Assembly (NCBI GenBank): GCA_035250245.1
Contig: DATFFH010000019.1
Coordinates: 14,167-78,166, forward strand
Length of the DNA stretch: 64,000 nt
Source: Luteimonas sp.
GTDB taxonomy: Bacteria > Pseudomonadota > Gammaproteobacteria > Xanthomonadales > Xanthomonadaceae
Direction: 5' to 3'
Positions 786-63,622 of the stretch are shown here, one piece after another. Each line of letters begins with the position of its first letter. The stretch's first letter is position 1. A program made the translations under genes and the position numbers. The notes under the pieces were generated by a model. The model ran no database searches. It was given only the letters and a program-made list of their open reading frames with translations, and was not told the DNA's origin.

Positions 786-790
786 GCTTT

Positions 791-905
791 CAAGCCGTCA
801 TCCCCGCGAAGGCGGGGATCCAGTGACTTGGATTCTGCCTTTTCTCACCCAAGGACAAAAGCAAAAGTCGCTGGGTCCTCGCTTTCGCGGGGATAACGGC
901 TAAAA
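791..905. repeat. CGTC-type REP doublet (copy A)
   Basis: AAGCCGTCATCCCCGCGAAGGCGGGGATCCAGTGACTT ... inverted AAGTCGCTGGGTCCTCGCTTTCGCGGGGATAACGGCT. Confidence 0.85.
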
Positions 906-906
906 A

Positions 907-1648: not shown

Positions 1649-1799
1649 TTTAAGCCGTCATTCCCGCGAAGGCGGGAATCCAGTGACTTGGATTTTCGCG
1701 TTATTCCGACCGAAGAGCAAAGCGCCACGAACGTCAAGAATTAAGGAGCAAAGGCTTAAGTCACTGGATTCCCGCTGTCGCGGGAATGACGGCTTAAAA
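1649..1799. repeat. CGTC-type REP doublet (copy B)
   Basis: TTAAGCCGTCATTCCCGCGAAGGCGGGAATCCAGTGACTT ... AAGTCACTGGATTCCCGCTGTCGCGGGAATGACGGCTTAA. Confidence 0.9.
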
Positions 1800-3581: not shown

Positions 3582-4336
3582 CAGTAACCCCGGTTCCAAG
3601 TGTTGTCGTAGGCGCGGCGCAAGCGTGCGAAATCCGCGTCGACGTCGGCTTCGGTGCGTTCGCCGCGCAGCTTCATCAGCGAACGGCGCAACCGCGACAG
3701 GTTCGCCTCGCGCCAGCGGGTGGCCGGGATCCTGATCTTGCTGCGATCCAGGTCGATCACCCAGCCGTTGCCGCGGCTATCGAATAGCAGATTGCTGGCG
3801 TTCAAGTCTGCGTGGTCCAAGCCGGCGCGATGGAAGCGCGCGATCAGCCGTCCGGTTTCCTCCCACGGCGCATCGTGTCCGGCGGTGGCGGCGCGTTCGG
3901 CCAACGAGCGTGCGCCTTCGATCCGTTCCAGCAGGATCGCCGCGCGATACCCCCAGCCTTCGCGCACATATTGCGCCGCCAGCGGACGCGGCACCGGCAG
4001 GCCGCGCCGGATCAATTCGCGCAGCAGGCGGAATTCGTCGAAGCTGCGCACTCGAGCGCTGCCGCGCCAGAAATGGCGGTCGCGGCTGAAAGCCGCCGCC
4101 CAGCCGCCGCGCAGGTACTGGCGCAGCACGGCCGGACCGAACGGGGACTCGACGAACCAGGCCCCGCCGCGCCCGCCGCTGCCGACGGGCCGGGCGTTTT
4201 CGCCCCAATGCGAGGGCACGAACCAATCGAGTTCGGCTTGCCGCATGCGCGTGCCGTCGAACAGAATCGCGCCATACCCCGTCCCGCGCTCGTCGCGGAA
4301 CGGCGTCAGGCCTTCGGTGGCGTCGAACCCGGTCAT
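3581..4336 (-). CDS. kdkA: 3-deoxy-D-manno-octulosonic acid (Kdo) kinase
   Basis: [30 protein letters not shown] kinase motifs; divergent from GT9. Confidence 0.88.
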
Positions 4337-4358
4337 CCCAGCGAGTCTAACAATCCCC

Positions 4359-5408
4359 ATGCCTCCATCGCCGTCGCCATTGCGTTCCGTCTGCCTGCTG
4401 CGGCTGTCTGCGCTGGGCGATGCCACGCACGTGGTGCCCCTGGTGCGCACCCTGCGCCGCGCCTGGCCGGATACGGCCCTGACCTGGGTCATCGGCAAGG
4501 GCGAATTCAAGTTGTTGGAGGGCCTGGACGGGGTCCGCTTCGAGACCTACGACAAGAACGCCGGCTTGAAAGGCATGTTCGATCTGCGCAAGCGCTTGGG
4601 CGGCGGCCGCTTCGACGCTTTGCTGCAGATGCAGGTCGCCGCACGCGCGAATCTGCTGTCGGCCTTCGTCCCGGCCGTGCGCCGGATCGGCTACGACCGC
4701 TCGCGTTCGAAGGATCTGCATGGACTCTTCATCAACGAACGGATCCCGGATCGGCCCGGCATCCATGTGCTGGACGCGATCGGCAGTTTTTGCGAACCGC
4801 TCGGGCTGAAACAGACCGAGGTCGTCTGGGACCTGCCGGTGCCGGACGAAGCCCGGGCCTGGGCGCAAGCGCAATGGCCGGACGATGGCCGCCCCACCCT
4901 GCTCATCTCACCCTGCTCCAGCCACGCGCTGCGCAACTGGCGCGCAGACCGTTATGCCGCAGTCGCCGACCATGCCGCCGCGCAGGGCTGGCGCATCGTG
5001 CTGTGCGGCGGACGCAGCGCGCTGGAGCGGGAAACCGCCGATGCGATCCTGGCGGCAATGCGTTCGCCGGCGCTCGACCTGGTCGGCAAGGACACGCTGA
5101 AGCAACTGCCAGCGCTGCTAGAACGCGCTGCGTTGGTGATGACGCCGGACTCCGGTCCGATGCACATCGCCAATGCGATGGGTACGAAAGTATTGGGCTT
5201 GCACGCCGCCAGCAATCCCGAACGCAGCGGACCCTATTCGGATCGGCGTTATTGCGTGGACCGCTACGACGACGCTGCGCGCAAATACTTGGGCAAACCG
5301 GCGTCGGCGTTGAAGTGGGGCGCGAAGATCGAACGCGAAGGCGTGATGGATCTAGTGACCGTCGATGATGCGGTTGCGGCGTTCGAGCGTTTTCGCCAAT
5401 CGCGATAG
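4359..5408 (+). CDS. Glycosyltransferase family 9 (LPS heptosyltransferase-like)
   Basis: [25 protein letters not shown] motifs. Confidence 0.9.
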
Positions 5409-5414
5409 AGCGCA

Positions 5415-5490
5415 GCCGTCGCGATTGGGATAGAGGCTTCCAAGCGAAAGTCGCTGGATCCCCGCTTTCGCGGGGATGACGGCTTAAAAG
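5415..5490. repeat. CGTC-type REP, intact right arm with degenerate left arm (copy C)
   Basis: AAAGTCGCTGGATCCCCGCTTTCGCGGGGATGACGGCTTAAAAG at 5446-5490. Confidence 0.75.
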
Positions 5491-5666
5491 CGGAGGCAAC
5501 CGCAATAGAGTTGGATAGCTCCAGGCTTGCGTTGAAACGAAGGCTTCCGACCTAAGCCGGATAAGGACTGCGACCTTCGGACGGTCCGAACGGGCGACCA
5601 TCGTCGGTTCCGGCCGCATCGCCAGGCGCGTAGCTTGCGCCGGTTCCTCGCCTGGATCCCCACACC

Positions 5667-7026: not shown

Positions 7027-7119
<93 letters not shown>

Positions 7120-7152
7120 CATAAAAAAGCGCCCCTCGCGGGCGTTTTTTTA

Positions 7153-7473
7153 TGTCTGACGGAGAGGGTGGACGTTGATGAGAACCCACGGTTCGACAAA
7201 TTCGTCTGGAACGAATTTGGACAGCCGAAGGCTGGCCCCGCAGGCGCTTGCGCCGGAGGGGCGAGGTCCATGGATGGGCCGAGCAATCCCACCCTCGTCC
7301 TACAGTGCCTACGAAAGGTATTTCTTTTGTCTGGCGGAGAGGGTGGACATTGACGAGAGCCCACGGTTCGACACATTCGTCCGGAGCGAATTTGGACAGC
7401 CGAAGGCTGGCCCCGCGGGCGCTTGCGCCGAAGGGGCGAGGCCCATGGATGGGCTGAGCAATCCCACCCTCGT
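7153..7473. repeat. Two tandem ~175-bp multi-hairpin units bounded by tRNA-Ser 3'-end-derived inverted repeats
   Basis: Units start TGTCTG(A/G)CGGAGAGGGTGG at 7153 and 7328 and end AATCCCACCCTCGT at 7298 and 7473. Confidence 0.9.
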
Positions 7474-8367: not shown

Positions 8368-8435
8368 CGATTCGGCGGATCGTCCGCGCGACGAACATCC
8401 ACGTCTAATTTGCAGAGCGAAGGCTATTGCTTTTC

Positions 8436-8563
8436 GTAGGAGCGGCTTTAGCCGCGAGCTCTTTCCTTCAAATCGCGGCATTGCAGCGATTCGGAGAAAA
8501 GCTCGCGGCTAAAGCCGCTCCTACGAAGAACAAGGCAGAGCAGTGGAGCAAGCTCCGCTCTAC
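8436..8563. repeat. GTAG-type REP doublet plus a single REP of a second GTAG family
   Basis: GTAGGAGCGGCTTTAGCCGCGAGCT / inverted copy ending 8524; CAGTGGAGCAAGCTCCGCTCTAC at 8541-8563. Confidence 0.85.
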
Positions 8564-8564
8564 A

Positions 8565-9296
8565 TCAGACAGGGACGAGTTCCGGCATCAGCGCGGCTTC
8601 GAGGGCATCCCAAACGCAGTGCCCCGCCTTGCCGCGGATCTTGGCCAAACGCGCCTCGTGGGCAGCCAGATCGGCTTCGTCGACATGCACGCGCGGACGC
8701 GGGCCGGCGGCCTGGTAACGGCGCTCCACCACCGCCTGCGAAGCAGCCGTCGACAGAGCGTCGAACCCGATTTCGCCCTGCCCCGCGGTCAACGCCAGAT
8801 AGGCTTCGGCCAGCAGTTGCGCGTCGAGCAGCGCGCCGTGCAATTGCCGGTGCGAATTGTCCACGCCGAGCCTTTTGCACAACGCGTCCAGCGAATTGCG
8901 CTGGCCGGGGTAACGTTGCCGCGCAAGTTCGAGCGAATCCTCCACACCGGCGCGTTCGCGGATTCGACCGAATTGCGCACCCAATCGCGCGAGCTCTGCA
9001 TCGAGGAAGCCGACGTCGAACGCGGCGTTGTGGATCACCAGTTCGGCGCCGTCGATGAAGGCGAGGAATTCTTCAGCGACTTCGGCGAATTTCGGCTTGT
9101 CGGCCAGGAATTCCAAAGTCAGGCCGGTGACTTCCTGCGCGCCGACCTCGAATTCGCATTCGGGATTGAGATAGCAATGGAAGGTGCGGCCGGTAGGGCG
9201 GCGCTCGAACAGTTCGACACAACCGATTTCGACGACGCGATTGCCTTTTTCCCAGGAGAGGCCGGTGGTTTCGGTGTCCAGGACGATTTGGCGCAT
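8565..9296 (-). CDS. dnaQ: DNA polymerase III epsilon subunit
   Basis: LDTETTG, HNAAFD, HGALLDA (DEDDh). Confidence 0.96.
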   Translation of the reverse strand: MRQIVLDTETTGLSWEKGNRVVEIGCVELFERRPTGRTFHCYLNPECEFEVGAQEVTGLTLEFLADKPKFAEVAEEFLAFIDGAELVIHNAAFDVGFLDAELARLGAQFGRIRERAGVEDSLELARQRYPGQRNSLDALCKRLGVDNSHRQLHGALLDAQLLAEAYLALTAGQGEIGFDALSTAASQAVVERRYQAAGPRPRVHVDEADLAAHEARLAKIRGKAGHCVWDALEAALMPELVPV

Positions 9297-9321: not shown

Positions 9322-9439
9322 GTAGGGTGGGCCTCGGCCCACCATTGCCATTCCGCTCGCTTGCCGCAAACAAATCAGCGAGGTCGAAAAAATTGCCGCA
9401 TCGGATGAATGCGCGTCGGTGGGCCAAGGCCCACCCTAC
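9322..9439. repeat. GTAG-type REP doublet overlapping the rnhA stop
   Basis: GTAGGGTGGGCCTCGGCCCACC ... GGTGGGCCAAGGCCCACCCTAC. Confidence 0.85.
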
Positions 9440-11384: not shown

Positions 11385-12556
11385 TCCGCACGGCGCTGCT
11401 CGCACTGGCGTTGACCGCGGCTGTACCGGCCATGGCGCAAACCGACGACGCGCTGCCGCTGCAGACCGCGCCGGCTGCAGACGCGCTCGCGACCCGCAGC
11501 GGCCTGGACATCTACCAGCGCTTCCGCGAACACCTCGCCGATCCCACTTGCGAAGGCGATGCAGTCAGCGCGCGTTGGCGCCAGCACTTCGCGGCCGCGC
11601 CGAAAAAACTCAGCAATCCCGACAGCGATGTGCTGCCGCTGTTCGGCTACGTGGTCGATGCTTTGATCGAAGCCGACCTGCCCACCGAGTTCGCGCTGAT
11701 CCCTTTCGTCGAAAGCGGCTATCAGCCCGGCGCACGCAGCGCGAGCGGCCCGGCCGGGCTGTGGCAGTTCATCGCGGTGACCGCGCGCAACCATCAGGTG
11801 CCGGTGCGCGCGGGCTACGACGGGCGTTTGTCACCGGTCGACTCCACCCGCGCCGCGGTGCGTTATTTGAAGACCCTGCACGGCATGTTCGCCGGCGACT
11901 GGCGCTTGGCTGTGATGGCCTACAACGCCGGCGAATACCGCCTGCTGCAATCGTTGCGGCGCAGCGGCCAGAACGCGCGCAATGCGCGTCCGGCCGAACT
12001 GGTGGGCTTGTCCGGCATCACCTACGCCTACGTGCGCAAACTGCATGCGCTGTCCTGCCTGATGGAACAGGCTGACGACCGCGCCGAATGGCTGCGTGCG
12101 ATCGATCGTCCGGTGCCGATGCTCACGGCGCAAACCTGGCCCGAAGGCGCCGGCAGCCTCGACGCCTGGGCGAAGATGCGCGGCCTGGATCCGGCGGCCT
12201 TGAAACGGCTCAATCCGGCGTTCGCGCAAGGGCGCGGCGATCGCGAACGCCGCGTGCTCGCGCCGGCCAGCGGCGCCGCGATGCCCGTGCTGGCCGAACT
12301 CGGCGATGCCGGTGCGGCGGCCGCGATGCCCGCCCTGATCGCCTCTGCGGCGGATACAAGCGCGCCACGGACGCACACGGTGGTGCGCGGCGATTCGTTA
12401 TCGAAGATCGCGCGCAAGTACGGCGTGGGCCTGGACGATTTGCGCAAACGCAACGGGCTGGGCGCGAAGAGCGCGATCAAGCCCGGCATGGTGCTGAAGC
12501 TGGACGAACAAACGGCTGCCTTTGCTATCCCTCCCCCTTTGAAAAAGGGGGATTGA
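11381..12556 (+). CDS. mltD: Lytic murein transglycosylase with LysM (MltD-like)
   Basis: Signal peptide, IPFVESGY, AGLWQFI, AYNAGE, C-terminal HTVVRGDSLSKIARKYGV; last residues lie in a REP. Confidence 0.88.
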   Translation: MIRTALLALALTAAVPAMAQTDDALPLQTAPAADALATRSGLDIYQRFREHLADPTCEGDAVSARWRQHFAAAPKKLSNPDSDVLPLFGYVVDALIEADLPTEFALIPFVESGYQPGARSASGPAGLWQFIAVTARNHQVPVRAGYDGRLSPVDSTRAAVRYLKTLHGMFAGDWRLAVMAYNAGEYRLLQSLRRSGQNARNARPAELVGLSGITYAYVRKLHALSCLMEQADDRAEWLRAIDRPVPMLTAQTWPEGAGSLDAWAKMRGLDPAALKRLNPAFAQGRGDRERRVLAPASGAAMPVLAELGDAGAAAAMPALIASAADTSAPRTHTVVRGDSLSKIARKYGVGLDDLRKRNGLGAKSAIKPGMVLKLDEQTAAFAIPPPLKKGD

Positions 12557-12635
12557 GGGGGATTTGCTTTTGCCGTTCGCCTAGCGGACAAGATCAAGAG
12601 CAAATCCCCCTTGATCCCCCCTTTTTCAAAGGGGG
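12528..12635. repeat. REP doublet of the CCCCCTTTGAAAAAGGGGG family
   Basis: Inverted pair; second copy of the family at 36811-36914. Confidence 0.85.
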
Positions 12636-12730
12636 AAACATCAAAGGCTACGAAAGTGCGGCCCGAAACTCGACTCGGCGCGCCCGCGGCGTCAAACTTG
12701 GCCCCTGCTCCGCAACCGACAAGGCTTCCC

Positions 12731-13525: not shown

Positions 13526-13540
13526 CGTCGCTCCGCCTTC

Positions 13541-13635
13541 GTAGGTGCGAATTCATTCGCACGCTTTTGCCGCAAGAGCGTGCGAATAAATTCGCACCTA
13601 CGAAAAACAAAGCAGCGGAGCAAGCTCCGCTCTAC
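13541..13635. repeat. GTAG-type REP doublet (GTAGGTGCGAATTCATTCGCAC) plus single GTAGAGCGGAGC REP
   Basis: Inverted pair 13541-13601; CAGCGGAGCAAGCTCCGCTCTAC ending 13635. Confidence 0.85.
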
Positions 13636-13648
13636 AAAGCGAACTGGG

Positions 13649-16312: not shown

Positions 16313-16573
16313 TATTTGGACTCCTGTGCGGTGTCTACCGCTGGATGAAATGACCGGACATCTCCCCGTTGCGGCGATGCCGCAAACGCATCCGGACGGA
16401 CGTGCCTCGATGCGCATCCACGCGCGCATCTCGGTTGCCGTCGTTATACCAGCGCGATTTTGGGGGCGCAACACGAAAACCGCGAAAAATATACGGTTTT
16501 CAGCGGGTTTTTCACGCTTTTCGCGCTTGCGCACGAGGCACGAGTGGTGTAACCGACGAATGGCACCGCTTTT

Positions 16574-16651
16574 GTGGGAGCGGCTTCAGCCGCGAGATCT
16601 TTCATGAGATCGCGATCATGTTGAAAAGCTCGCGGCTGAAGCCGCTCCCAC
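16574..16651. repeat. GTAG/GTGG-type REP doublet
   Basis: GTGGGAGCGGCTTCAGCCGCGA / TCGCGGCTGAAGCCGCTCCCAC. Confidence 0.85.
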
Positions 16652-16707
16652 AAAAGAAAAAAGAAGGCGCCCGCAGGCGCCTTCTTTTTTCGGATCGTCG
16701 CGCAGCG

Positions 16708-21551: not shown

Positions 21552-21574
21552 TCGTGGCTCTTGTCTTTGCTTTT

Positions 21575-21715
21575 CCTTCTCCCGTCGGGAGAAGGTGGCG
21601 CGAAGCGCCGGATGAGGGTTCGGCGAAGCGAGGAGTTTGAAGCTCGCGGCGCGATCTGGAACAAGCGTCGCTTCGCCGAACCCTCACCCCAACCCCTCTC
21701 CCGGCGGGAGAGGGG
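21575..21715. repeat. REP doublet between the two clpP genes
   Basis: CCTTCTCCCGTCGGGAGAAGG...GGATGAGGG / CCCTCACCCC...CTCTCCCGGCGGGAGAGGG. Confidence 0.85.
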
Positions 21716-21722
21716 CTCTAGG

Positions 21723-22418: not shown

Positions 22419-22444
22419 TGGCAGCGGTCAGCCGCTGGACAGAC

Positions 22445-22646
22445 GTAGCCCGGGTGGAGCGAAGCGATACCCGGGGCCGCCATGTCTCGGAGCTAATCGA
22501 AGCTTCGCAACCATCGATTTGACTCCGTCCAAATGACCGTGGTGCCAACTGGCTTGTTGAGAATCCGTGTGTGGGACAGTCGCCGTCGTGTGGCTTCGAT
22601 TTTGGAGATGGCGATCCCGGGTATCGCTTCGCTCCACCCGGGCTAC
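22445..22646. repeat. GTAG-type REP doublet (GTAGCCCGGGTGGAGCGAAGCGATACCCGGG)
   Basis: Arms 22445-22475 and 22616-22646; single copy at 32699-32729. Confidence 0.85.
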
Positions 22647-22737
22647 GCGCCTCTAACGAATGCGACTGTCCCAAAAAACGACATCCCGGCAGAACCGGGA
22701 TGTCGTATTCGCGAGCTTGATCGGCGGTTCGGCGCGA

Positions 22738-24299: not shown

Positions 24300-24381
24300 T
24301 CCGAACCGGCCAGGCCGGCAGCCTAAGTTTAGGGGACTGGGCCTATTTTTCGTAGGCTGGGCCATTCGGGCAGCCGCTTTT

Positions 24382-24464
24382 GTAGGAGCGGCTTCAGCCG
24401 CGAGCTCTTCTCGGCACACTGCCGCGATCTGTAGGAGAAAGCTCGCGGCTGAAGCCGCTCCTAC
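24382..24464. repeat. GTAG-type REP doublet
   Basis: GTAGGAGCGGCTTCAGCCGCGAGCT / AGCTCGCGGCTGAAGCCGCTCCTAC. Confidence 0.85.
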
Positions 24465-24477
24465 AAAATCCAAACGG

Positions 24478-32582: not shown

Positions 32583-32596
32583 GTCGATCTTTTTTT

Positions 32597-32729
32597 GTGG
32601 GAGCGGCTTCAGCCGCGAGCTTTCCACATGGCTTCGGTGCGAGCAAAAAGCTCGCGGCTGAAGCCGCTCCCACAAAAAGAAGCAAGCCGCGACTCGGTCC
32701 CGGGCATCGCTTCGCTCCACCCGGGCTAC
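32597..32729. repeat. GTGG-type REP doublet plus single GTAGCCCGGG REP
   Basis: 32597-32673 and 32699-32729. Confidence 0.8.
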
Positions 32730-34051
32730 GGATTTGCGGGCGCTTGCACCGGATTCGCGCGCCGGCCCGGCCACAGCATGAACCCGACGGTGATCGCGAT
32801 CAGCAACCAGCAGTAGTGCGCCTTGCCGATCAACGCGATCGGCGACAGATGCGCCAGCGACGCCGCCAGCAGGATCTGCGCGCCGTACGGCAGCAGGCTC
32901 TGCACGGCGCAGGCGAAGATGTCGAGTAGGCTGGCCGAGCGCGCCGGCGGCACGCCATGACGCTGGGCAATGTCGCGCGCCAGGCTGCCGCTGATCAGCA
33001 GAGCGACGGTGTTGTTGGCGGTGAACACGTCGGTGGCCGAAGCCAGCGCGGCGATGCTCCATTCGCCGCTGCGCCGGCCCGTGTTGCCGCGTGCCAGCCG
33101 CGAAATCTGGCGCGCGATCCATTCCAAGCCGCCACTCGCCTTGGTCAACGCGCCCAGGCCGCCGATCAGCAGCGCCAGCAGCATCACTTCGAACACGCTT
33201 TCGAAACCGTCGTAAGCCGCTTCGGCGTAAGCGGCGGTATCGAAGTCGGCGACCATGCCGTAGCCGAACGCGCCGGCCACCACCAGGCCGATGCTCAGCA
33301 CCACCAGCACGTCCCAACCGATCACCGCCAACACCAGCACCAGCACGTACGGCAGCACCAGCCACGGCGAGACCTGGTCGTAGCTTTCCACCGGCGACGC
33401 TTCGCCCAGATAAGCCAGCACGCCGAGCGTCAACAGCGCCGCTGGCAGCGCGATCTTGGCGTTTTCGCGGAACTTGTCGCGCATCGAACTGCCTTGCGTG
33501 CGCGCGGCGGCGATGGCGGTGTCCGAAATCACCGACAGGTTGTCGCCGAACGTCGCGCCGCCCAGCACGGCGCCGATCACCAGCGCGCGGTCCAGGCCCG
33601 ACGCTTCGGATACGCCCAGCGCGATCGGCGCGACCGCCGCGATCGTGCCCATCGAGGTGCCGATCGCCAGCGACAGGAAGCCGGCGACCAGGAACAGGCC
33701 GGGCAGGATCAGCGCCGGCGGCAGCGCGCCGATGCCCAGCGACACCACCGCATCGACCGCGCCGATCGCCTTGGTCACGTAGGCGAACGCGCCGGCCAAC
33801 AGGAAGATCAGGCACATCTGGATGATGTTCGCGTCGCCGATGCCGGCGTACAGCGTGTCCATGGCCTTGATGCCGCGCCGATGCGCGATCCACAACGCCA
33901 AAGCCAGCGCCGGCAGGATCGCCACCGGCGCGCGCAGTTGGTAGAAGCCCATTTCCTGGCCCTGCGCCGTGTAGTACAGGCCGGCGCCGAAGAACAGGGC
34001 CAGGAACAGCAGCAAGGGGGTCAGCGCGGAGGCGCTGGAACGCTTTTCCAT
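32726..34051 (-). CDS. NhaC-family transporter (MetT-like, putative methionine uptake)
   Basis: IGTSMGT, FGDNLSVISDT.IAA.RTQG, ANNTVA, LLPYGAQ; about 12 TM helices. Confidence 0.82.
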   Translation of the reverse strand: MEKRSSASALTPLLLFLALFFGAGLYYTAQGQEMGFYQLRAPVAILPALALALWIAHRRGIKAMDTLYAGIGDANIIQMCLIFLLAGAFAYVTKAIGAVDAVVSLGIGALPPALILPGLFLVAGFLSLAIGTSMGTIAAVAPIALGVSEASGLDRALVIGAVLGGATFGDNLSVISDTAIAAARTQGSSMRDKFRENAKIALPAALLTLGVLAYLGEASPVESYDQVSPWLVLPYVLVLVLAVIGWDVLVVLSIGLVVAGAFGYGMVADFDTAAYAEAAYDGFESVFEVMLLALLIGGLGALTKASGGLEWIARQISRLARGNTGRRSGEWSIAALASATDVFTANNTVALLISGSLARDIAQRHGVPPARSASLLDIFACAVQSLLPYGAQILLAASLAHLSPIALIGKAHYCWLLIAITVGFMLWPGRRANPVQAPANP

Positions 34052-34175
34052 CTCTTCATGCGGATATAAGGATTCGATCGATTGTGCAGTGCAGCAAGCC
34101 GCCTGTCCAGCGACCCGGATGGAACGGCGGTGCGGGCCGGTGGAACGATGGCGCGTCGCGAGCCTCGATCCCTAG

Positions 34176-34230
34176 CTTCGCCGAACCCTCATCCGGCGCT
34201 TCGCGCCACCTTCTCCCGGTGGGAGAAGGG
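34176..34230. repeat. Single REP of the GGGAGAAGG/GGATGAGGG family
   Basis: CCCTCATCCGGCGCTTCGCGCCACCTTCTCCCGGTGGGAGAAGG. Confidence 0.8.
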
Positions 34231-34367
34231 AAACAAAAAGAGCCCACGAATGACTTCGGGATCTGGCCGGTTCCTGGCCGAAGGCAGGCCAAACCGCTCG
34301 CGATTGCCACGGGCGGACCGATCGGATCGAACCCATGCTTTCCGATCCCCGCAAAACCTTCGCTCCC

Positions 34368-35486: not shown

Positions 35487-35541
35487 TTCGGCCGCGGCCG
35501 CCGTCGATTCGCCCGGCGGCGACACCGCCGCCTCGGCTTTT

Positions 35542-35629
35542 GTAGAGTCGAGCTTGCTCGACTGCTTTTCGTTCCGAGGCGAGATTCTCGCCGTGGGAGA
35601 AAGAGCAGTCGAGCAAGGCTCGACTCTAC
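35542..35629. repeat. GTAG-type REP doublet (GTAGAGTCGAGCTTGCTCGACTG)
   Basis: Same family at 47497-47567, 53686-53757, 63545-63615. Confidence 0.85.
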
Positions 35630-35663
35630 GAAAAGCGGCGAAATCCGCCGCGCGCGAGGCGGA

Positions 35664-36677: not shown

Positions 36678-36810
36678 AAGGATTCCAAGCGGCAGGGCGC
36701 CGCGCATCGCGCGGAGCCGGGGAAAGTTAGCCGGAAATTATGCCGGAAAAGGCTTACATTTTCAGCTTCGGGGCTGCTACGCGGGTCCGACAACGGAGAA
36801 CCTCAGCCGT

Positions 36811-36914
36811 TCCCCCTTTGAAAAAGGGGGACTAAGGGGGATTTGCTTTTGGCCCTGACGCCGCGACTGCGACGACACGTAAATCCCCCTCTCTCCCCCT
36901 TTTTCAAAGGGGGA
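36811..36914. repeat. REP doublet of the CCCCCTTTGAAAAAGGGGG family
   Basis: Matches 12528-12635. Confidence 0.85.
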
Positions 36915-36930
36915 GGTCCTCCAGGAGGAA

Positions 36931-37764: not shown

Positions 37765-39411
37765 TTGCGTCGCACCCTGTCTCTCACCGCCGCTTTCACC
37801 TTCTTCCTGGCCGCCGGCCTGGCGCCTGCGCAGGAATCGCGCCTGCCGGACATCGGCTCGTCCGCGGGCGAAGTGATCAGTCCGGCGGAACAGGCCGAAT
37901 ACGGCGCGATGACGCTCGCCCAGCTGCGCCATTTCGACTACGTGCTGGAAGATCCGCTGATCGACGGCTGGCTGCAGTCGATGGGCAACCGTCTGGCAGC
38001 CTCCAGCGAAACGCCCAAGCAGCCGTTCACCTTCTTCATGCTGCGCGATCGGCAGATCAACGCGTTCGCCACGCTCGGCGGCTACATCGGCGTCAACGCC
38101 GGCCTGGTGCTGACCGCGCGGAGCGAGGACGAAGTCGCCGGTGTGCTTTCGCACGAGATCGCGCACGTCACCCAGGCGCACGTGCTGCGCGCGGTCGAGC
38201 GCGCGAAGAAAGACAGCATCCCGATCCTGCTGGCGATGCTGGGCGCGATCGCGGTCGCGCAGGCCAGCGGCGGCAATTCCAGCGACGATGCGACCATGGC
38301 CGCGGTGATGTCGGCGCAGGGCCTGATCGCGCAGCGCCAGATCGACTACACCCGCAGCAACGAAGCCGAAGCCGACCGCATCGGCATCCGCACGCTGTCG
38401 CGCAGCGGCTACGACCCAGAAGGCATGGCCTCGTTCTTCGAGCGCATGCAGGCCGCCAGCCGCGGCAATCAGGGCGGCGATCGCGATCGCGCTCCCGACT
38501 ACCTGCTCACCCACCCGGTCACTTCGCTACGCATCACCGAAGCGCGCGACCGGGCGGCCAAGCTGCCCAAACCCGTCGTGGCCAGCGCCGACGCCGGCAG
38601 GATCAGCAACAATCCGCTCCTGCCCGGCAGCCTGCGCCTGCCGACCACGCAGGCGCGCGGCGCCACCGGACAGTTCGACTGGGCGCGCGAACGGCTGCGC
38701 GCCTTTAGCGCCAATACGCCGGCGGCGGCGATCGCCGAATACGAGCGTATCGGCCGCGGCCAGAGCAACGGCCTCAACGATGCGCAGCGCTACGGCCTGG
38801 CCGTGGCCCGGCTCGAGGCCGGCCAAGGCGCAGGCGCGGCCTCCGAGTTGGCGCCGCTGTTGGCCAAGCATCCCGGCGATCTGTGGATCACCTTGGCGCT
38901 GGCCGAAGCCGAGGCGCGGGGCGGCAACGGCGCCGCTGCGGACAAGCGTTTCGAAGCCTTGGTCGACTCCCTTCCCAGCAACCGGGCCGTGGCCCTGACT
39001 TATGCCAAGGTGCTGGGCGAGCGCAACACGCCGGCTGCGGGCAAGCGCGCGCAGGCCATTCTGCGGCCGCTGTTGGCGCGTTCGGCCGAAGATCCGCTGT
39101 TCCAGCAGACCTTCGCCCGCGCCAGCGAAATCGCCGGCGATTCCGTCCGCGCGGGCGAGGCCTATGCCGAAGCCGCCTATCTCAACGGCCGTCCGGAACA
39201 GGCCCTGATCCAGCTCAACACCCTGAAAAAGCGCGCCGACCTGGACTACTACGCCCGGGCCCGGATCGACGCCCGGATCGCCGCGATCACGCCCACCGTG
39301 CTGGAACTGCGCCGGCAGGGGGTGAAGGACGAGGTGCTCAACCGTAGGCTCGACGCCTCCGACGGCAAGCGCGACCGCACCCGCGAAGGTTTCGACGCTT
39401 CGTACCGGTAG
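37765..39411 (+). CDS. bepA: M48 metalloprotease with TPR domain (BepA/YfgC-like)
   Basis: Signal peptide, QINAFA..GG, HEIAH zinc motif, EAEADRIG, LLTHP; TTG start after GGAG (inferred). Confidence 0.85.
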   Translation: MRRTLSLTAAFTFFLAAGLAPAQESRLPDIGSSAGEVISPAEQAEYGAMTLAQLRHFDYVLEDPLIDGWLQSMGNRLAASSETPKQPFTFFMLRDRQINAFATLGGYIGVNAGLVLTARSEDEVAGVLSHEIAHVTQAHVLRAVERAKKDSIPILLAMLGAIAVAQASGGNSSDDATMAAVMSAQGLIAQRQIDYTRSNEAEADRIGIRTLSRSGYDPEGMASFFERMQAASRGNQGGDRDRAPDYLLTHPVTSLRITEARDRAAKLPKPVVASADAGRISNNPLLPGSLRLPTTQARGATGQFDWARERLRAFSANTPAAAIAEYERIGRGQSNGLNDAQRYGLAVARLEAGQGAGAASELAPLLAKHPGDLWITLALAEAEARGGNGAAADKRFEALVDSLPSNRAVALTYAKVLGERNTPAAGKRAQAILRPLLARSAEDPLFQQTFARASEIAGDSVRAGEAYAEAAYLNGRPEQALIQLNTLKKRADLDYYARARIDARIAAITPTVLELRRQGVKDEVLNRRLDASDGKRDRTREGFDASYR

Positions 39412-39534
39412 GGTGGGCCTTGGCCCACCATTGCCTGTCGGCGCCCGCGAACAACCGTCGAAACTGGGGCCCAGACCTCGCCCATTGCCTGTCGAGGCGG
39501 CGAAATGGCGATGGTGGGCCAAGGCCCATCCTAC
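39408..39534. repeat. GTAG-type REP doublet overlapping the bepA stop
   Basis: GTAGGGTGGGCCTTGGCCCACC ... GGTGGGCCAAGGCCCATCCTAC. Confidence 0.85.
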
Positions 39535-45350: not shown

Positions 45351-45364
45351 CTAAGCCTGCTTGT

Positions 45365-45509
45365 GTAGAGCGGAGCTTGCTCCGCTGCCCTTGCTTGGCT
45401 TTGTAGAGCGAGGCTTGCTCCGCTGCTTTTGTATTTCGACCGCATTCGTCGATAAGGGGCAAGCCCCCGCTCTTACAAAGCCAAAGCAGCGGAGCAAGCT
45501 CCGCTCTAC
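45365..45509. repeat. Cluster of GTAGAGCGGAGCTTGCTCCGCTG REPs
   Basis: Two direct copies and one inverted copy. Confidence 0.85.
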
Positions 45510-45622
45510 ACAAGCGGGTGCGCCCTAGGGTCCGCCCCAGGATTGACGTCCGCCGCGGGACCCGGGAATTTAACCTCGGCGATGCGGACCTGGCAGGGCG
45601 CATCCCGCCGACACCCCGCGTC

Positions 45623-47462: not shown

Positions 47463-47496
47463 TCCGCTCTTTTCGCCGACCTGTTTTTTTGTTTTT

Positions 47497-47567
47497 GTAG
47501 AGTCGAGCCTTGCTCGACTGCTTTTGTCGCAGCGGGTCGAAGAGCAGTCGAGCAGGCTCGACTCTAC
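47497..47567. repeat. GTAGAGTCGAGC REP doublet overlapping the hydrolase stop
   Basis: Stop TAG (47566-64) lies in the GTAG tag. Confidence 0.85.
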
Positions 47568-48445
47568 AAAAGCTCGACTTTTGCGGTGGCGAGGCCGGGC
47601 TTCAGCTGCCCGGGCCAATCGCGATCGTTCGCGACTTGCGCCCGCTCGCGGCTGGCCTCCAAAGCCTCGAAATCCAGATCGGCGAAAGCCCAGACCTGGT
47701 CGCCCTGCGTTTGCGCAACGATGCCGTCGGACGGGAACCCGACATCCATCGGCGCATACACCGTCGCTTCGCCGACGTTGAAATCCAGCGCCGGACTCCA
47801 CGGCGCTTCGCCCGCGGTCACCGACTGCGCCACATAGCAGCGGTTTTCCAAAGCCCGCGCCAGGCAGCCGACCCGCACCCGCGTCGCACCCGCCGCGGCT
47901 TCGGTGCAGCTGGGCACGATCAGCAGCTTCGCCCCGGCTTCGCATTGCGCGCGCACCGGCAACGGGAATTCGATGTCGTAGCAGACCGCGATCGCGCCAC
48001 GCACGCCGCCGATGTCGAACGCCTTCAACGCATCGCCACCGTGGATGGTGTTCGCTTTCTTTTCGAAGCCGGTCATCTGCAGCTTGTCCTGCCAGACGCG
48101 GCCGCCGTCGGGCGCGAACAGATACGAGCGGTTGCGATAACCGCCGTTGCCATCGGCCAGTAGAAAGGTGCCGGCGACGATCCGCATTCCGGTATCGCGG
48201 GCCAGGCCACTGAACAGCGCCAGCCAATCGTCGTGGTAACGCTGGATCCCAGCCAGCGAGCCCTGCAGATCGCTGCGCACCGGTTCCTCGAAGGTGGCGC
48301 CGAGCTCCAACGAGAGATATTCAGGCAGTACGGCCCATTGCGCGTCCTGCGCGGCCGCATGCTCAAGCAGGCGACGCTGTTTTTCGGCGAATTCGGCGAA
48401 GTCGCGCGGCGCTTCGACGGGATACTTGGCGACCGCGATCTTCAT
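47564..48445 (-). CDS. Carbon-nitrogen hydrolase (nitrilase superfamily)
   Basis: LPEY (Glu), QDKLQMT (Lys), AVCYDIEFP (Cys), ARALEN. Confidence 0.9.
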   Translation of the reverse strand: MKIAVAKYPVEAPRDFAEFAEKQRRLLEHAAAQDAQWAVLPEYLSLELGATFEEPVRSDLQGSLAGIQRYHDDWLALFSGLARDTGMRIVAGTFLLADGNGGYRNRSYLFAPDGGRVWQDKLQMTGFEKKANTIHGGDALKAFDIGGVRGAIAVCYDIEFPLPVRAQCEAGAKLLIVPSCTEAAAGATRVRVGCLARALENRCYVAQSVTAGEAPWSPALDFNVGEATVYAPMDVGFPSDGIVAQTQGDQVWAFADLDFEALEASRERAQVANDRDWPGQLKPGLATAKVELL

Positions 48446-50478: not shown

Positions 50479-50588
50479 GGAAGCGGCTCGAGATTGGACG
50501 CCGATAGCCTGTCCGCCGCCAATGAGGCCCCGAAGCGCCGGATTTGAAGCGAATGTGAAGTCTCGATCCCGAGCCTGGAGCAGCTCTT

Positions 50589-50657
50589 GTAGGTGCGAAT
50601 TCATTCGCACGCTGTTCGCTACGGGACGGTAAAGCGCGCGAATGAATTCGCACCTAC
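50589..50657. repeat. GTAGGTGCGAATTCATTCGCAC REP doublet
   Basis: Matches 13541-13601. Confidence 0.85.
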
Positions 50658-50678
50658 GAGAGCTTTCGGCGAACGGCG

Positions 50679-52821: not shown

Positions 52822-53679
52822 ATGAACTACCGCCACGCCTTTCATGCCGGCAACCATGCCGACGTGCTCAAGCACGTCGTCCTGCTCGCGGTCTGCGACG
52901 CCCTGACCGCCAAGCCGACGCCGGCCTTCGCCCTGGATACCCATGCCGGACGCGGCCTGTACCGGCTCAAATCGGGATCCGCGCAAAGGACCGGGGAAGC
53001 CGAACAAGGCATCGGTCGCCTGCTCGCCGCGCAACCGCGCGATCCGGCCATCGGCCGCTATCTGAAGGCCGTGGCCGCCTGCCGCGCTGCGCACGGGCAC
53101 GATGCCTACCCCGGATCGCCTTGGCTGCTGGCCCACGCGTTGCGCGAACAGGACCGGATCGCCTGCTGCGAAATGCAGCCGATCGAAGCTGACGCGCTGA
53201 AGGCGAATTTCGCCGGCGACGCGCGCGTGACCGTGCGCGCGAGCGACGGCTACGCGGCGATCAAAGCCCTGCTGCCGCCGAAAGCCGGTATAGCGAAGCT
53301 CGGACGCGGCCTGGTGCTGATCGACCCGCCGTACGAAGCGCAGCTGGAAGAATTCGACGCCGCCCTGGCCGCCTTGCGCGAAGGCCTGCAGCGCTGGCCG
53401 CAAGGCACGTTCGCCTTGTGGTATCCGATCAAGCTGCGTCGGCACTTGCAGCCTTTCTATCGCAAGGCCGCGAACCTGCAAGCCAAGTCCGCGCTGGTCT
53501 CCGAACTGCTGGTGCGCGCCGACGATTCGCCGCTGCGCATGAACGGCAGCGGCATACTGCTGCTCAATGCGCCATGGAAACTGGACGAGGCGCTGAAGAC
53601 CGTCTTGCCGACGCTGCGCAAAATCCTGGACGACGGCGGCGGAGCATCGGATCTGCGCTGGCTGCGCACGCCGGCTTAG
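52822..53679 (+). CDS. rlmJ: 23S rRNA A2030 N6-methyltransferase
   Basis: MNYRHAFHAGNHADVLKH, YPGSP, LIDPPYE, WYPIK. Confidence 0.95.
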   Translation: MNYRHAFHAGNHADVLKHVVLLAVCDALTAKPTPAFALDTHAGRGLYRLKSGSAQRTGEAEQGIGRLLAAQPRDPAIGRYLKAVAACRAAHGHDAYPGSPWLLAHALREQDRIACCEMQPIEADALKANFAGDARVTVRASDGYAAIKALLPPKAGIAKLGRGLVLIDPPYEAQLEEFDAALAALREGLQRWPQGTFALWYPIKLRRHLQPFYRKAANLQAKSALVSELLVRADDSPLRMNGSGILLLNAPWKLDEALKTVLPTLRKILDDGGGASDLRWLRTPA

Positions 53680-53685
53680 CTTTTT

Positions 53686-53757
53686 GTAGAGTCGAGCCTT
53701 GCTCGACTGCTTTTGCCTTGCGTGATCGAAAAGCAGTCGAGCAAGGCTCGACTCTAC
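53686..53757. repeat. GTAGAGTCGAGC REP doublet
   Basis: Inverted pair between convergent genes. Confidence 0.85.
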
Positions 53758-58759: not shown

Positions 58760-61700
58760 ATGCCGAACCCCGTTTTCAACGCCCCGCTCCTACCCAAAGC
58801 CGGCCAACAACGCGCCTGGTGGCGCGCACCGGCGTCCGCGTCCGCCTTGGCCTGGACGATCGCGCGCGCGGCGGAAACCCACGCCGGCCCCGTGCTGCTG
58901 GTGGCGCGCGACAACCAGAATGCGCATCAACTCGAGTCCGATCTGCGCACCCTGCTCGGCGATGCCGATTTGCCGGTGATGCCGTTCCCCGACTGGGAAA
59001 CCCTGCCCTACGACCAGTTCGGCCCGCACCCGGACATCGTTTCGCAACGCCTGGCCGCCTTGCACCGCTTGCCGTCGTTGAAGCGCGGCATCGTCGTGGT
59101 GCCGGTGCAAACGCTGATGCAGCGCCTGCCGCCGCTGCGTTACGTGGTCGGCAACACTTTCGACGTGCGGGTCGGCCAGAAGCTCGACCTGGACGCCGAG
59201 AAGCGGAGATTGGAAGCGGCCGGCTACCGGCACGTGCCGCAAGTGCTGGATCCGGGCGATTTCGCCGTGCGCGGCGGCCTGCTCGACGTGTATCCGATGG
59301 GTGCCGACGAACCCTACCGCGTGGAGTTGTTCGACGATGTCATCGACTCCATCCGCGCCTTCGACCCTGAAACGCAGCGCTCGCTGGACAAGACCGAAGC
59401 CGTGCGATTGCTGCCCGGCCGCGAGATTCCGTTGGACGAGGACGCCGCGCAGCGTGCGATGCAGGCGTTGCGCGACCGCTTCGACATCGACACCCGGCGC
59501 AGCGCGCTGTACCAGGATCTCAAGGCAGGCTTGGCGCCTGCGGGCATCGAGTATTACCTGCCGCTGTTCTTCGACGGCACGGCCACGTTGTTCGACTACC
59601 TGGGCGACGACGCACTGCCGGTGCTCGTCGATGGCGCCAACGAAGCGGCGGAGCATTTCTGGCGCCAGACCGGCGAGCGTTACGAGCAGCGCCGCCACGA
59701 CATCGAGCGCCCGCTGCTCGCGCCGACCGAGCTGTATCTGGCGCCGGATGCGTTGCGCGAACGGCTGAACCGCATGGATCTGGTCGAAGTCTGCAGTGCG
59801 GAGCATCCGCGTCGCGGCCAGGCCGCCTCCTTGGGCGATCAGCCCGCGCCGGATTTGCCGATCGCCGCCAAGGATGTCGAGCCTGCGGGCGCACTGAAGA
59901 CTTTTCTCGCCACGTATCCGGGGCGTGTGCTGATCGCCGCCGATACGGCCGGACGGCGCGAGGCTTTGCTGGAGGTACTCAACGCCGCCGGTCTGACACC
60001 CGACGTCCTGCCGGATTTCCAGGCTTTTGTTCTTAGCCGTCATTCCCGCGAAAGCGGGAATCCAGCGACTTCCGCTCTTGAAACCCCGAGAGATAGAAAA
60101 GCCAAGTCACTGGATCCCCGCCTTCGCGGGGATGACGGCTTAAGGGCACCGAGCCGCTTCGCCATCGCCGCCGCACCGCTCGACAACGGCTTCGCCCTGG
60201 ACGATCCGCAGATCGCGATCCTCACCGAGCGCCAGCTGTTCCCCGAACGCGCCGCGCAGCCGCGCCGGCGCAAGCGCGCCGGCCGCGAACCCGAAGCGAT
60301 CATCCGCGACCTGGGCGAGCTGAGCGAAGGCGCGCCGATCGTGCACGAGGATCACGGCGTGGGCCGTTACCGCGGTCTGGTCACGCTCGATGCCGGCGGC
60401 CAGCCCGGCGAATACCTGGACATCGAATACGCCAAGGGCGACCGCCTGTACGTGCCGGTCGCGCAACTGCATCTGGTCAGCCGCTATTCCGGCGCTTCGG
60501 CCGAAACCGCGCCTTTGCACTCGCTCGGCGGCGAGGCCTGGACCAAGGCCAAGAAGAGGGCCGCGGAGAAGGTGCGCGACGTGGCCGCGGAACTGCTGGA
60601 AATCCAGGCCAAACGCCAGGCGCGCGCGGGACTGGCGCTGGAACTGGACCGTGCCATGTACGAACCGTTCGCGGCGACCTTCCCGTTCGAAGAAACGCCG
60701 GACCAGCATGCGGCGATCGAAGCCGTCATCCGCGACTTGTCCTCCTCGCAACCGATGGACCGCGTGGTTTGCGGCGACGTCGGCTTCGGCAAGACCGAAG
60801 TCGCCGTGCGCGCCGCCTTCGTCGCGGCCAGCGCGGGCAAGCAGGTGGCGGTGCTCGTGCCGACCACATTGTTGGCCGAACAGCACTACCGCAACTTCGC
60901 CGACCGTTTCGCCGATTGGCCGATCCGGGTCGAGGTGCTGTCGCGTTTCAAATCCGCCAAGGAAATCAAGGCCGAACTGGAGAAGCTGGCCGAGGGCAAG
61001 ATCGACGTGATCGTCGGCACGCATCGTCTGCTGCAACCGGACGTGAAATTCCACGACCTGGGCCTGGTGATCGTCGACGAGGAGCAGCGCTTCGGTGTGC
61101 GCCAGAAGGAAGCGCTGAAGGCCTTGCGTGCGAACGTGCATCTGCTGACCCTGACCGCGACGCCGATCCCGCGCACGCTGAACATGGCCATGGCCGGACT
61201 GCGCGATCTGGCAATCATCGCCACGCCGCCGGCACACCGGCTGGCCGTGCAGACCTTCGTCGTACCCTGGGACGATGCCCAACTGCGGGAAGCCTTCCAG
61301 CGCGAACTGGCGCGCGGCGGCCAGGTGTATTTCCTGCACAACGATGTGGAAAGCATCGGCCGGATGCAGCGCGAACTGCAGGAGCTGGTGCCCGAAGCGC
61401 GGATCGGCATCGCTCACGGCCAGATGCCCGAGCGCGAACTGGAAAAGGTGATGCTGGATTTCCACAAGCAGCGATTCAATGTGCTGCTATGTTCGACCAT
61501 CATCGAATCGGGCATCGACATCCCGAACGCCAACACCATCATCATCAACCGCGCCGACAAATTCGGCCTGGCCCAGTTGCATCAGCTGCGCGGCCGGGTC
61601 GGCCGTTCGCATCATCGCGCCTACGCCTATCTGGTAATTCCGGATCAGCGTTCGATCACGTCGGATGCGCGCAAGCGGCTGGACGCGATCTCGGCGATGG

Positions 61701-62329
61701 ACGAACTCGGTGCCGGCTTCACCCTGGCCACCCACGACCTGGAAATCCGCGGCGCCGGCGAATTGCTAGGCGAGGACCAGAGCGGGCAGATGGCCGAAGT
61801 CGGCTTCAGCCTGTACACCGAGCTGCTGGAACGCGCGGTGCGTTCGATCAAGCGCGGCGAACTGCCCGATGCGGACGCGCCGCCCAGCCGTGGCGCGGAA
61901 GTCGAATTGCACGTGCCCGCGCTGATCCCGGAAGACTACCTGCCCGATGTGCACGCGCGGCTGACGTTGTACAAGCGGATCAGCTCCGCGCGCGACGCCG
62001 AGGAATTGCGCGAACTGCAGGTCGAGATGATCGACCGCTTCGGCCTGCTGCCCGATGCCGCCAAGCACCTGTTCGCCGTCGCCGAACTGAAGCTGCAGGC
62101 GACCCAGCTGGGCTTGCGCAAGATCGACCTGGGCGAAAAAGGCGGCCGCGTGCATTTCGAATCCAAGCCGAACATCGATCCGATGGCGGTGATCCGGCTG
62201 ATCCAGGGCCAACCCAAGCTTTATCAAATGGACGGCCCCGACAAATTGCGGGTGAAACTGGATCTGCCCGACGCACCGACGCGCTTCAACGCCGCGCGCG
62301 GCTTGCTCACGACATTGCGGGCCGCCTGA
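58760..62329 (+). CDS. mfd: Transcription-repair coupling factor carrying an in-frame repeat insertion
   Basis: [43 protein letters not shown]; extra segment at about aa 425-462. Confidence 0.97.
60032..60144. repeat. CGTC-type REP doublet inside the mfd reading frame (copy D)
   Basis: CTTAGCCGTCATTCCCGCGAAAGCGGGAATCCAGCGACTT ... AAGTCACTGGATCCCCGCCTTCGCGGGGATGACGGCTTAAG. Confidence 0.92.
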
Positions 62330-63533: not shown

Positions 63534-63544
63534 CCGTCGCCTTT

Positions 63545-63615
63545 GTAGAGTCGAGCCTGCTCGACTGCTCTTACTCAACACGAACGGAAAAGCAGTCGAG
63601 CAGGCTCGACTCTAC
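63545..63615. repeat. GTAGAGTCGAGC REP doublet
   Basis: Inverted pair. Confidence 0.85.
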
Positions 63616-63622
63616 AAAAGCA

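Follow-up and report, generated by a model that had tools for sequence, protein, structure and literature searches.

Palindromic repeats that lie in frame within protein-coding genes are already known in bacteria, as Rickettsia palindromic elements (RPEs), as repetitive extragenic palindromic (REP) sequences in repair genes and as some MITEs, miniature transposable elements with inverted repeats. Here we describe such an element, an apparent CGTC-1-type REP dimer, in mfd, the gene for the factor that couples transcription to repair (TRCF), in a 64,000-nucleotide stretch of contig DATFFH010000019.1 (the whole stretch that was analysed, hereafter the 64-kb window), whose source organism is Luteimonas (Lysobacteraceae); what is new is mfd as the host gene and the Lysobacteraceae as the host lineage. 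The closest described repeats are the CGTC-tagged REPs of Di Nocera, De Gregorio and Rocco (2013, BMC Genomics 14:522; PMC3733652), whose stems are 8 bp long in families 1 and 2, almost always with an A-T start, and whose loop is 4 nt in family 1; a short tail fitting CCA follows, and the units are often opposed and fold into a larger structure (PMC3733652). No dedicated transposase is known for these repeats, and intragenic REPs are often dimers encoding 20-30 residues, many of them in replication and repair genes (uvrABCD, recBCD, polA, dnaE2); the authors speculate that the REPs in repair genes have a role beyond chance (PMC3733652). The mfd element shares with them the CGTC tag, an 8-bp AT-start stem, a 4-nt loop, the CCA tail, the inverted dimer and the intragenic position in a repair gene, and because every feature of the published definition is present we file it as CGTC-1-type. 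It differs in its host, mfd being absent from the hosts in the text and supplements searched of PMC3733652; in its lineage, since most CGTC families are found in Alphaproteobacteria (PMC3733652) whereas the family of the window is found in Lysobacteraceae (Gammaproteobacteria); and in the reuse of one site by several families across species, which is not described in PMC3733652.

The RPEs (Ogata et al. 2000 Science 290:347; 2002 Genome Res 12:808), as summarized in PMC3733652 and PMC5896051, are palindromes of about 100-150 bp that sit in frame, at surface-exposed positions, in genes for functional proteins. A short reading of the window made earlier from its letters (the original prediction) had named them as the precedent, aptly, as RPE-4 and RPE-6 carry the CGTC tag and are placed in the CGTC-tagged REP superfamily (PMC3733652). 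Unlike the RPE hosts, which are obligate intracellular bacteria, the host of the mfd insert is a free-living, GC-rich soil bacterium; moreover, the insertion site in mfd is common to many species in one protein, and the likeness to RPEs rests on the tag. REPINs, doublets of inverted REPs mobilized by REP-associated tyrosine transposases (RAYTs; Bertels and Rainey 2011, PMC3116915), resemble the mfd element in that two inverted REPs and a short spacer form one long hairpin, and in forming within-genome populations with lineage variants that are vertically inherited and persistent. However, classical REPINs are GTAG-type, tied to the gene of a RAYT (an IS200/IS605-like transposase) that the same REPs flank, and described as extragenic, whereas the mfd element is CGTC-tagged and is likened to them by its architecture. 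Among bacterial MITEs, Correia/NEMIS elements make in-frame fusions in Neisseria. The same is reported for Coxiella QMITE2 in enhC (PMC5896051). As in those cases, a non-autonomous element with terminal inverted repeats adds residues to a protein; unlike them, the mfd element has no clear target-site duplication or parent insertion sequence (IS), is built of REP hairpins and extends an internal domain loop, not a C-terminal end. We found no earlier account of a single 15-nt linker that palindromes of three or more families have reused, over roughly half of one bacterial family.

The mfd gene is the sole long open reading frame (ORF) across the palindrome, and no stop occurs in its translation. 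Its product matches UvrB_inter, MFD_D3, CarD_TRCF_RID, DEAD, Helicase_C and TRCF above the Pfam cut-off, in the order expected for Mfd/TRCF, and an alignment of 71 Mfd sequences contains hundreds of invariant or nearly invariant columns along the whole protein. ORF, translation and Pfam thus agree with the original prediction of a palindromic REP doublet in frame in an unbroken 1189-aa mfd. PF21132 (MFD_D3) matches the protein twice, and the best match, to residues 382-426 (profile 1-45 of 73), runs up to the start of the insert; the RNA polymerase (RNAP)-interacting domain, residues 521-577, lies downstream of the insert. When the window Mfd is matched by sequence to E. coli Mfd structures, the alignment ends at about residue 410 and restarts at 429, the insert falling in the unaligned gap. 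The function of domain D3 was for a long time considered unknown; the domain moves to a new position when Mfd binds DNA and is activated (PMC7385628).

At the insertion site, relatives carry a native linker of 5 aa (e.g. LAGDT or RDGAA) between an invariant Phe (F423) and RFAIAVAPL. The nearest named match, Luteimonas gilva H23 Mfd (1154 aa; 93% identity, 95% over aligned columns), has a 7-aa linker (FVSATAKKRF), and the window has 42 aa (FV-LSRHS...). The net gain is therefore 35 aa against L. gilva (1189 vs 1154 aa) and 37 aa against the native linker; the extra stretch itself stands as predicted, the size given for it (about 38 residues) is corrected accordingly, and its left flank, given as DFQAF, becomes DFQAFV, the wording of the right flank being corrected as well. 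The expected clean gap in close relatives was found in L. gilva, which is shorter by 35 aa at the exact point, but about half of related Mfd carry an insert there. Nor do repeat-free orthologues carry an equally long homologous loop, the native linker being only 5 aa across relatives. In an AlphaFold2 model, residues 427-463 form a coil with a predicted local distance difference test (pLDDT) score of about 26 (all <50), bordered by a helix (420-425) and a strand (467-471), and the flanking D3 blocks score about 84-88. These data show that a linker of 5-7 aa has been replaced by 42 aa, which are predicted to form a disordered loop in D3, in line with the loop ahead of the RNAP-interacting domain that had been predicted.

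A separate observation concerns the linker of L. gilva (L001; locus ~4270-4300), in which VSATAKK contains a REP stem-loop 8-mer, CCGCGAAG. This 7-aa linker may be the deletion scar of a former insert; the 8-mer CCGCGAAG and a loose spacer match are suggestive only, and we did not adopt the linker as a remnant of the element.

The element consists of two inverted arms of about 40 nt each around a spacer, and the 60020-60160 region of the window reads CAGGCTTTT GTT CTTAGCCGTCATTCCCGCGAAAGCGGGAATCCAGCGACTT-(spacer)-AAGTCACTGGATCCCCGCCTTCGCGGGGATGACGGCTTAAGGGC ACCGAGCCGCTTCGCC (Table 1). The left arm has the stem-loop ATTCCCGC-GAAA-GCGGGAAT and the right arm, on its own strand, ATCCCCGC-GAAG-GCGGGGAT; 54 nt separate the two 23-nt REP cores. 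The predicted RNA fold is one long hairpin of -75.8 kcal/mol, compared with -38.6 +/- 3.9 kcal/mol for shuffled sequences (z = -9.6), as expected from the strong mRNA hairpin of the original prediction. An Rfam scan of the element gave no family at the gathering score, only sub-threshold matches to generic long hairpins (miRNA precursors), and no terminator-like or promoter-like site was found in it. A target-site duplication, TA, is possible at the flanks of extragenic copy B and of the solo arm (see below), and none is evident at copy A or at the mfd copy.

We refer to the CGTC-tagged repeat family of the mfd element as F1, and to the second and third palindromic families encountered here as F2 and F3. 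A 30-nt F1 arm pattern, GCCGTCATYCCCGCGAARGCGGGRATCCAG, has seven matches in the window (794+, 871-, 1654+, 1764-, 5454-, 60036+ and 60110-) and none in 100 shuffles; the seven arms lie at four sites in the 64 kb, as three dimers and one solo arm. CGTC or a one-base variant of it is present in all seven, and the tail CCA(G) follows the stem in every one. Between the mfd arms and those of the extragenic dimers A and B, complementarity is 92-94%, which bears out the match to intergenic copies noted earlier; the left arm is 0.89 identical to the solo arm at 5481, and for the right arm the identity to the left arms of A and B is 0.93. The mfd element thus appears to be one member of a repeat family that is dispersed in this genome.

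The family also has a readable frame. In the frame equivalent to that of mfd, copy B is stop-free, as had been correctly claimed, and reads ...KSLDSRCRGNDGLKAA; the arms of copy B hold stops in the other two frames, one of which, in the mfd copy, meets its stop just at the end. The frame RH(S/P)RE.G(D/N)P...SLD.R.RG(D/N)DG is found on both strands in copy A and on the + strand in copy B and the mfd copy. Among the three dimers of the window, then, one frame of three stays open through the arms, and mfd uses that frame; with a single open frame, roughly one phase in three yields a readable insertion. Copies of F1 also occur in the flanks of relatives' mfd loci. In Lysobacter enzymogenes strain 521 (L075), where the mfd site itself is empty, F1-family CGTC-REP dimers form a tandem array (352-1023) of nine arms with a period of ~150 nt some 2 kb upstream of mfd, and a further F1-family dimer (7307-7393) is found downstream of the gene.

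To describe the site across the Lysobacteraceae, the 120 best Mfd cluster representatives, all at least 80% identical, were classed by site state. The site is essentially empty in 58 of the 120 and holds F1 in 26 (read as RHPREGGDP...SLGSRLRGNDG or collapsed, e.g. RHPREGGNDGL), F2 in 15, F3 (PLPLAGEGWGEG-like) in 4 and other, unclassified inserts in 17, some of which resemble decayed copies. More than a third of related Mfd thus have a palindrome of F1, or of one of at least two further families, in the D3 linker. In 60/120 representatives the site has 8 or more extra aa, and nowhere else along the 3.5-kb gene are there inserts of comparable size. Since the same site is occupied in about half of related Mfd, it is a reused and possibly old site, not the scene of a one-off event. 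Among the 79 species-level genomes, 29 are empty, 14 carry a clear F1, 4 carry F2 (L073 counted as F2) and 4 F3, the rest having other extras; the minimal 44-aa span is found in 19/79.

The peptides of F1, F2 and F3 are unrelated to one another. The F2 and F3 copies at the mfd site are palindromic too, with folds of -46 to -76 kcal/mol (F2, -68 to -76), and all three families form strong hairpins there (-46 to -81 kcal/mol). Site states are interleaved on a neighbour-joining tree from which the variable region was left out, and Fitch parsimony on this approximate tree, to which recombination may contribute, gives at least 36 state changes among the 120. In the clade of the window (>=89% identity), F1 with CCCGC stems (the window), F1 with CCGGC stems (L. 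cucumeris and P0005), a collapsed F1 (P0009), F2 (Luteimonas sp. SX5) and no insert (L. gilva, P0003 and P0004) all occur. No target motif was seen at the empty sites. A second, smaller variable site at residues ~271-274 (window ~59570-59585, D1b) has 8-21 extra aa, EAPREGLRGAGPQAST-like, in 13/120 representatives; it was rejected as a second palindrome site, its DNA being not evidently palindromic.

Taken together, the mfd element is probably a tolerated selfish insertion of a CGTC-type REP dimer at a long-lived palindrome landing pad in the D3 linker. It would have arrived as selfish DNA, probably via hairpin or single-strand transposition, and would owe its survival to a D3 linker that puts up with a floppy surface loop, here disordered, charged and about 40 aa long, and to a frame and a length, divisible by three, that happened to fit. 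The insert peptide itself is most likely without function. The site would then have served as a long-lived landing pad whose copies were inherited, their arms being kept complementary and close to the genome's other copies by gene conversion, hairpin-templated repair or precise re-insertion. Copies would decay by deletion between direct repeats in the arms into collapsed forms such as RHPREGGNDGL, and may also gain nested palindromes or be replaced by other families.

Several of these forms can be recognized among the relatives. Collapsed single hairpins occur in L023, L046, L063 and P0009, and could have arisen by deletion between the GCGGGRAT direct repeats of both arms. Small palindromes, CAGCC-N4-GGCTG, are nested in the right arm of the mfd element at two positions (L011, ~4330-4370; L055 and L080, ~4345-4390) and may represent a fourth repeat family entering the site, and in L025 the mfd insert has expanded in tandem. 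Elsewhere in the window, unrelated REP families often share one intergenic site (8436-8563, 13541-13635 and 32597-32729), and REPs have been reported as IS insertion targets in Pseudomonas, Neisseria and Sinorhizobium (PMC3733652). Both fit a landing pad where the presence of one palindrome makes it likelier that others arrive or are retained.

Across seven species, 13/40 arm pairs have changed on both sides with 86% of cells paired, a level reached in 0/500 shuffles and far above that of slid controls. In a Pseudoxanthomonas group, whose common junction TCAGAT|CGTCAT speaks for common descent of its copies, the arms are 0.86-1.0 identical, compared with 0.48-0.79 for third codon positions of the flanking mfd, indicating that the arms are not drifting like neutral sequence. 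Conversion from other copies, hairpin-templated correction between arms, precise re-insertion or selection on the hairpin would each give this pattern.

A number of points weigh against a tolerated selfish insertion at a landing pad. In nearly every mfd F1 copy the CGTC tag begins exactly 9 nt past the codon for Phe423, and the 54 nt between REP cores recurs in five mfd copies from different genera (window, L006, L009, L024 and L055) and in 0/10 extragenic dimers; the shared length and tag position fit one old insertion better than many independent hits, and under one old insertion concerted evolution would be needed to explain the likeness of the arms to each genome's own copies. Arm conservation above synonymous sites could be selection on structure. 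No transposase and no target-site duplication were identified, the window not having been screened gene by gene for a RAYT, so that mobility is inferred from copy number only. Furthermore, the AlphaFold2 model of the whole protein is of middling quality (mean pLDDT 61), and since D3 is not inert but is repositioned on Mfd activation (PMC7385628), the neutrality of a 40-aa loop in it would have to be assumed.

Compared with a long-lived landing pad, a recent, lineage-specific insertion after the split from L. gilva, with the shared position reflecting nucleotide-precise target choice at a true hotspot, is possible but doubtful. Several junction offsets, seen for F1 and for F2, speak for it, and such a choice has a model in IS200/IS605-type transposases, which insert beside a fixed short target, but no conserved target motif is visible in the empty sites. 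The nearest relatives (L. gilva, P0003 and P0004; 93-95% identity) lack the element, as a recent arrival would predict; however, P0005, P0007 and P0009, which belong to the clade of the window, have junction residues in common (FV/A-L/F-S/G-RH and DDGL), and the L. gilva linker VSATAKK, unlike the native 5 aa, could be a deletion scar. Likewise, the arms of the window's mfd copy, together with the outer inverted repeat TTAAGCC, most resemble the extragenic arms of the window (0.89-0.93, vs 0.66-0.89 for mfd arms of other species), and the CCGGC stem variant is common to the L. cucumeris mfd copy and one extragenic copy of that genome, both of which argue for recent arrival, yet the 54-nt inner length is shared across genera and absent from the extragenic dimers, and the spacer start ATSAL is common to the window and some Pseudoxanthomonas copies.

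It is considerably less likely that the host has selected the insert, either with the palindrome kept because, by pausing or blocking RNAP inside the gene, it renders transcription of mfd Mfd-sensitive (autoregulation), or with the D3 loop tuning autoinhibition and mutation rate, in the vein of what Di Nocera et al. speculate for REPs in repair genes. By the same token, we think it improbable that the D3 linker of Lysobacteraceae mfd is a maintained palindrome slot, where selection or active targeting and repair keeps a strong hairpin of any family; if it were, a hard-to-transcribe hairpin or a D3-tuning loop would set Mfd level or activity and so the mutation rate. Some palindrome is present exactly here in half of the lineages and nowhere else in the gene, and three different families each supply a strong hairpin, but 58/120 relatives, including the closest, have no insert, many copies are collapsed, interrupted or degenerate, as in neutral decay, and the peptides of the three families are unrelated. 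Covariation that preserves the hairpin, and arm conservation above the synonymous background in a vertically inherited group, would suit selection, although both are equally explained by conversion or re-insertion of self-complementary variants. The movement of D3 during Mfd activation (PMC7385628), a reported action of Mfd where RNAs are structured, and the reported over-representation of REPs in repair genes (PMC3733652) also speak for a host role; against it, neither a terminator-like nor a promoter-like site was found in the element, and Rfam gave nothing above the gathering score. A link between the mRNA hairpin and Mfd's own role in RNAP rescue is pure inference.

An assembly chimera at the repeat, or an mfd that is already non-functional, is very improbable: although short-read assemblies often break or mis-join at repeats, and some public contigs terminate within the arms, as a repeat would lead one to expect, independent contigs from public metagenome assemblies, which contain this organism or near relatives, span the left junction (run X1, 59700-60060, 0 differences), the right junction (X2, 60112-60304; X3, 60110-60448) and the spacer (X4, 60040-60128), insert-bearing alleles are present in isolate genomes of several genera, and 1189 codons are open with conserved columns along the whole protein. 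With both junctions seen independently, an artefact was set aside. As RNA-seq support, only four metatranscriptomes came up, with 4-7% of the sequence words, probably those of the arms alone.

Our searches brought no host protein other than mfd to light. The window has approximately 43 REP-like arm matches when all families are counted, and the pair in mfd is the sole intragenic one. Ten stop-to-stop ORFs spanning window repeats were run against Pfam, and only CreD was matched, with the repeat upstream of the CreD domain and thus extragenic. No other intragenic F1 copy was found in the ~6 kb flank per locus of 80 relatives, and one candidate from this flank scan, in a chromate transporter, was rejected as a chance match with 4 mismatches inside the domain. 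A word-index protein search with the window peptide and with a consensus peptide found no other host protein. HMMER with the 42-aa peptide against 1.84 billion representatives returned 28 matches, and the 20 longest, which were Pfam-scanned, look like spurious ORFs through REP arrays, being judged so because the peptide motif repeats along them and they have only stray weak Pfam matches. The broader claim that the repeat adds loops to proteins in the plural was accordingly not sustained by the window, by the flanks of the 80 relatives or by the three peptide searches.

At this one site of a conserved protein a series of natural alleles is available, comprising the empty site, three unrelated palindromes and collapsed, nested and degenerate forms, across dozens of culturable Lysobacter, Luteimonas and Pseudoxanthomonas species. 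With it one can test whether Mfd, which has links to mutagenesis, is modulated by the inserts or carries them as neutral passengers, by what means REP-type repeats select their sites and stay there, and whether conversion homogenizes the arms. For annotation, length variation of about 35-60 aa in D3 of Lysobacteraceae Mfd is repeat-derived and does not mark a new domain.

Table 1. Position of mfd, its palindromic insert and the related F1 and F2 copies in the 64-kb window.
Feature	Position	Strand	Description
mfd (transcription-repair coupling factor)	58760..62329	+	1189 aa, intact ORF hosting the palindrome (ORF list, translation, Pfam)
Variable D3 linker, codons 424-465	60029..60154	+	Between invariant F423 and R466-F467; 42 aa here (protein and DNA alignments)
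Palindromic element, apparent CGTC-type REP dimer, REPIN-like, ~116 bp	60032..60147	.	Outer inverted repeat CTTAGCC to GGCTTAAGGGC; inverted-repeat pairs I3, I4, I6-I8
Left arm (REP unit 1)	60036..60071	+	Pattern match, 0 mismatches; encodes 11 residues
Left arm, CGTC	60038-60041	+	
Left arm, stem	60042-60049	+	ATTCCCGC
Left arm, loop	60050-60053	+	GAAA
Left arm, stem	60054-60061	+	GCGGGAAT
Left arm, tail	60062-60064	+	CCA
Spacer between arms	60072..60103	.	Encodes 11 residues; own small hairpin
Right arm (REP unit 2, inverted)	60104..60139	-	Pattern match, 0 mismatches; encodes 12 residues on the + strand
Right arm, CGTC	60137-60134	-	On the minus strand
Right arm, stem/loop/stem	60114-60133	-	
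F1 dimer copy A, extragenic	789..906	.	Only spanning ORF 117-896 (not run against Pfam)
F1 dimer copy B, extragenic, longer spacer	1649..1799	.	Spanning ORF without Pfam match
F1 solo arm, extragenic	5448..5491	-	Spanning ORF without Pfam match
F2 composite palindrome, extragenic	21566..21717	.	Inverted repeat I1, pattern matches; TTCCTTCTCCCGTCGGGAGAAGGTGGCGCGAAGCGCCGGATGAGGG...CCCTCACCCCAACCCCTCTCCCGGCGGGAGAGGGG
F2 half copy, extragenic	34171..34238	-	

Other repeats are also abundant in the window. GTAG-type REP dimers of at least four families (GTAGGAGCGGCTTCAGCCGCGAGC; GTAGGTGCGAAT..ATTCGCAC; TGTAGAGTCGAGC..GCTCGACTGC; GTAGCCCGGGTGGAGCGAAGCGATACCCGGG / GTAGGGTGGGCCTTGGCCCACC) all appear extragenic and were located at 8428-8569, 13533-13641, 16566-16656, 24374-24468, 32589-32730, 35536-35636, 45356-45518 and 47492-47573, with further sites at 50581-50661, 53679-53743, 63539-63621, 9322-9439, 22444-22647 and 39408-39534. 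G-rich palindromes (CCTCCCCCTTTGAAAAAGGGGGATTGAGGGGGA) form paired copies at 12530-12638 and 36809-36916, the spanning ORFs at the first of which are without a Pfam match. Between 20916 and 22245, two stretches of ~300 nt, 76% identical and with a spacing of 807 nt, are accompanied by more matching segments and look like tandem paralogous genes flanking the F2 copy. A 153-nt direct repeat (7146-7473; 92% identical, 175-nt spacing) lies just downstream of tRNA-Ser (7027-7117), one of eight tRNA genes in 7027-31637 (Ser, Asp, Val, Leu, Lys, His, Arg and Pro), several of which adjoin REP clusters.

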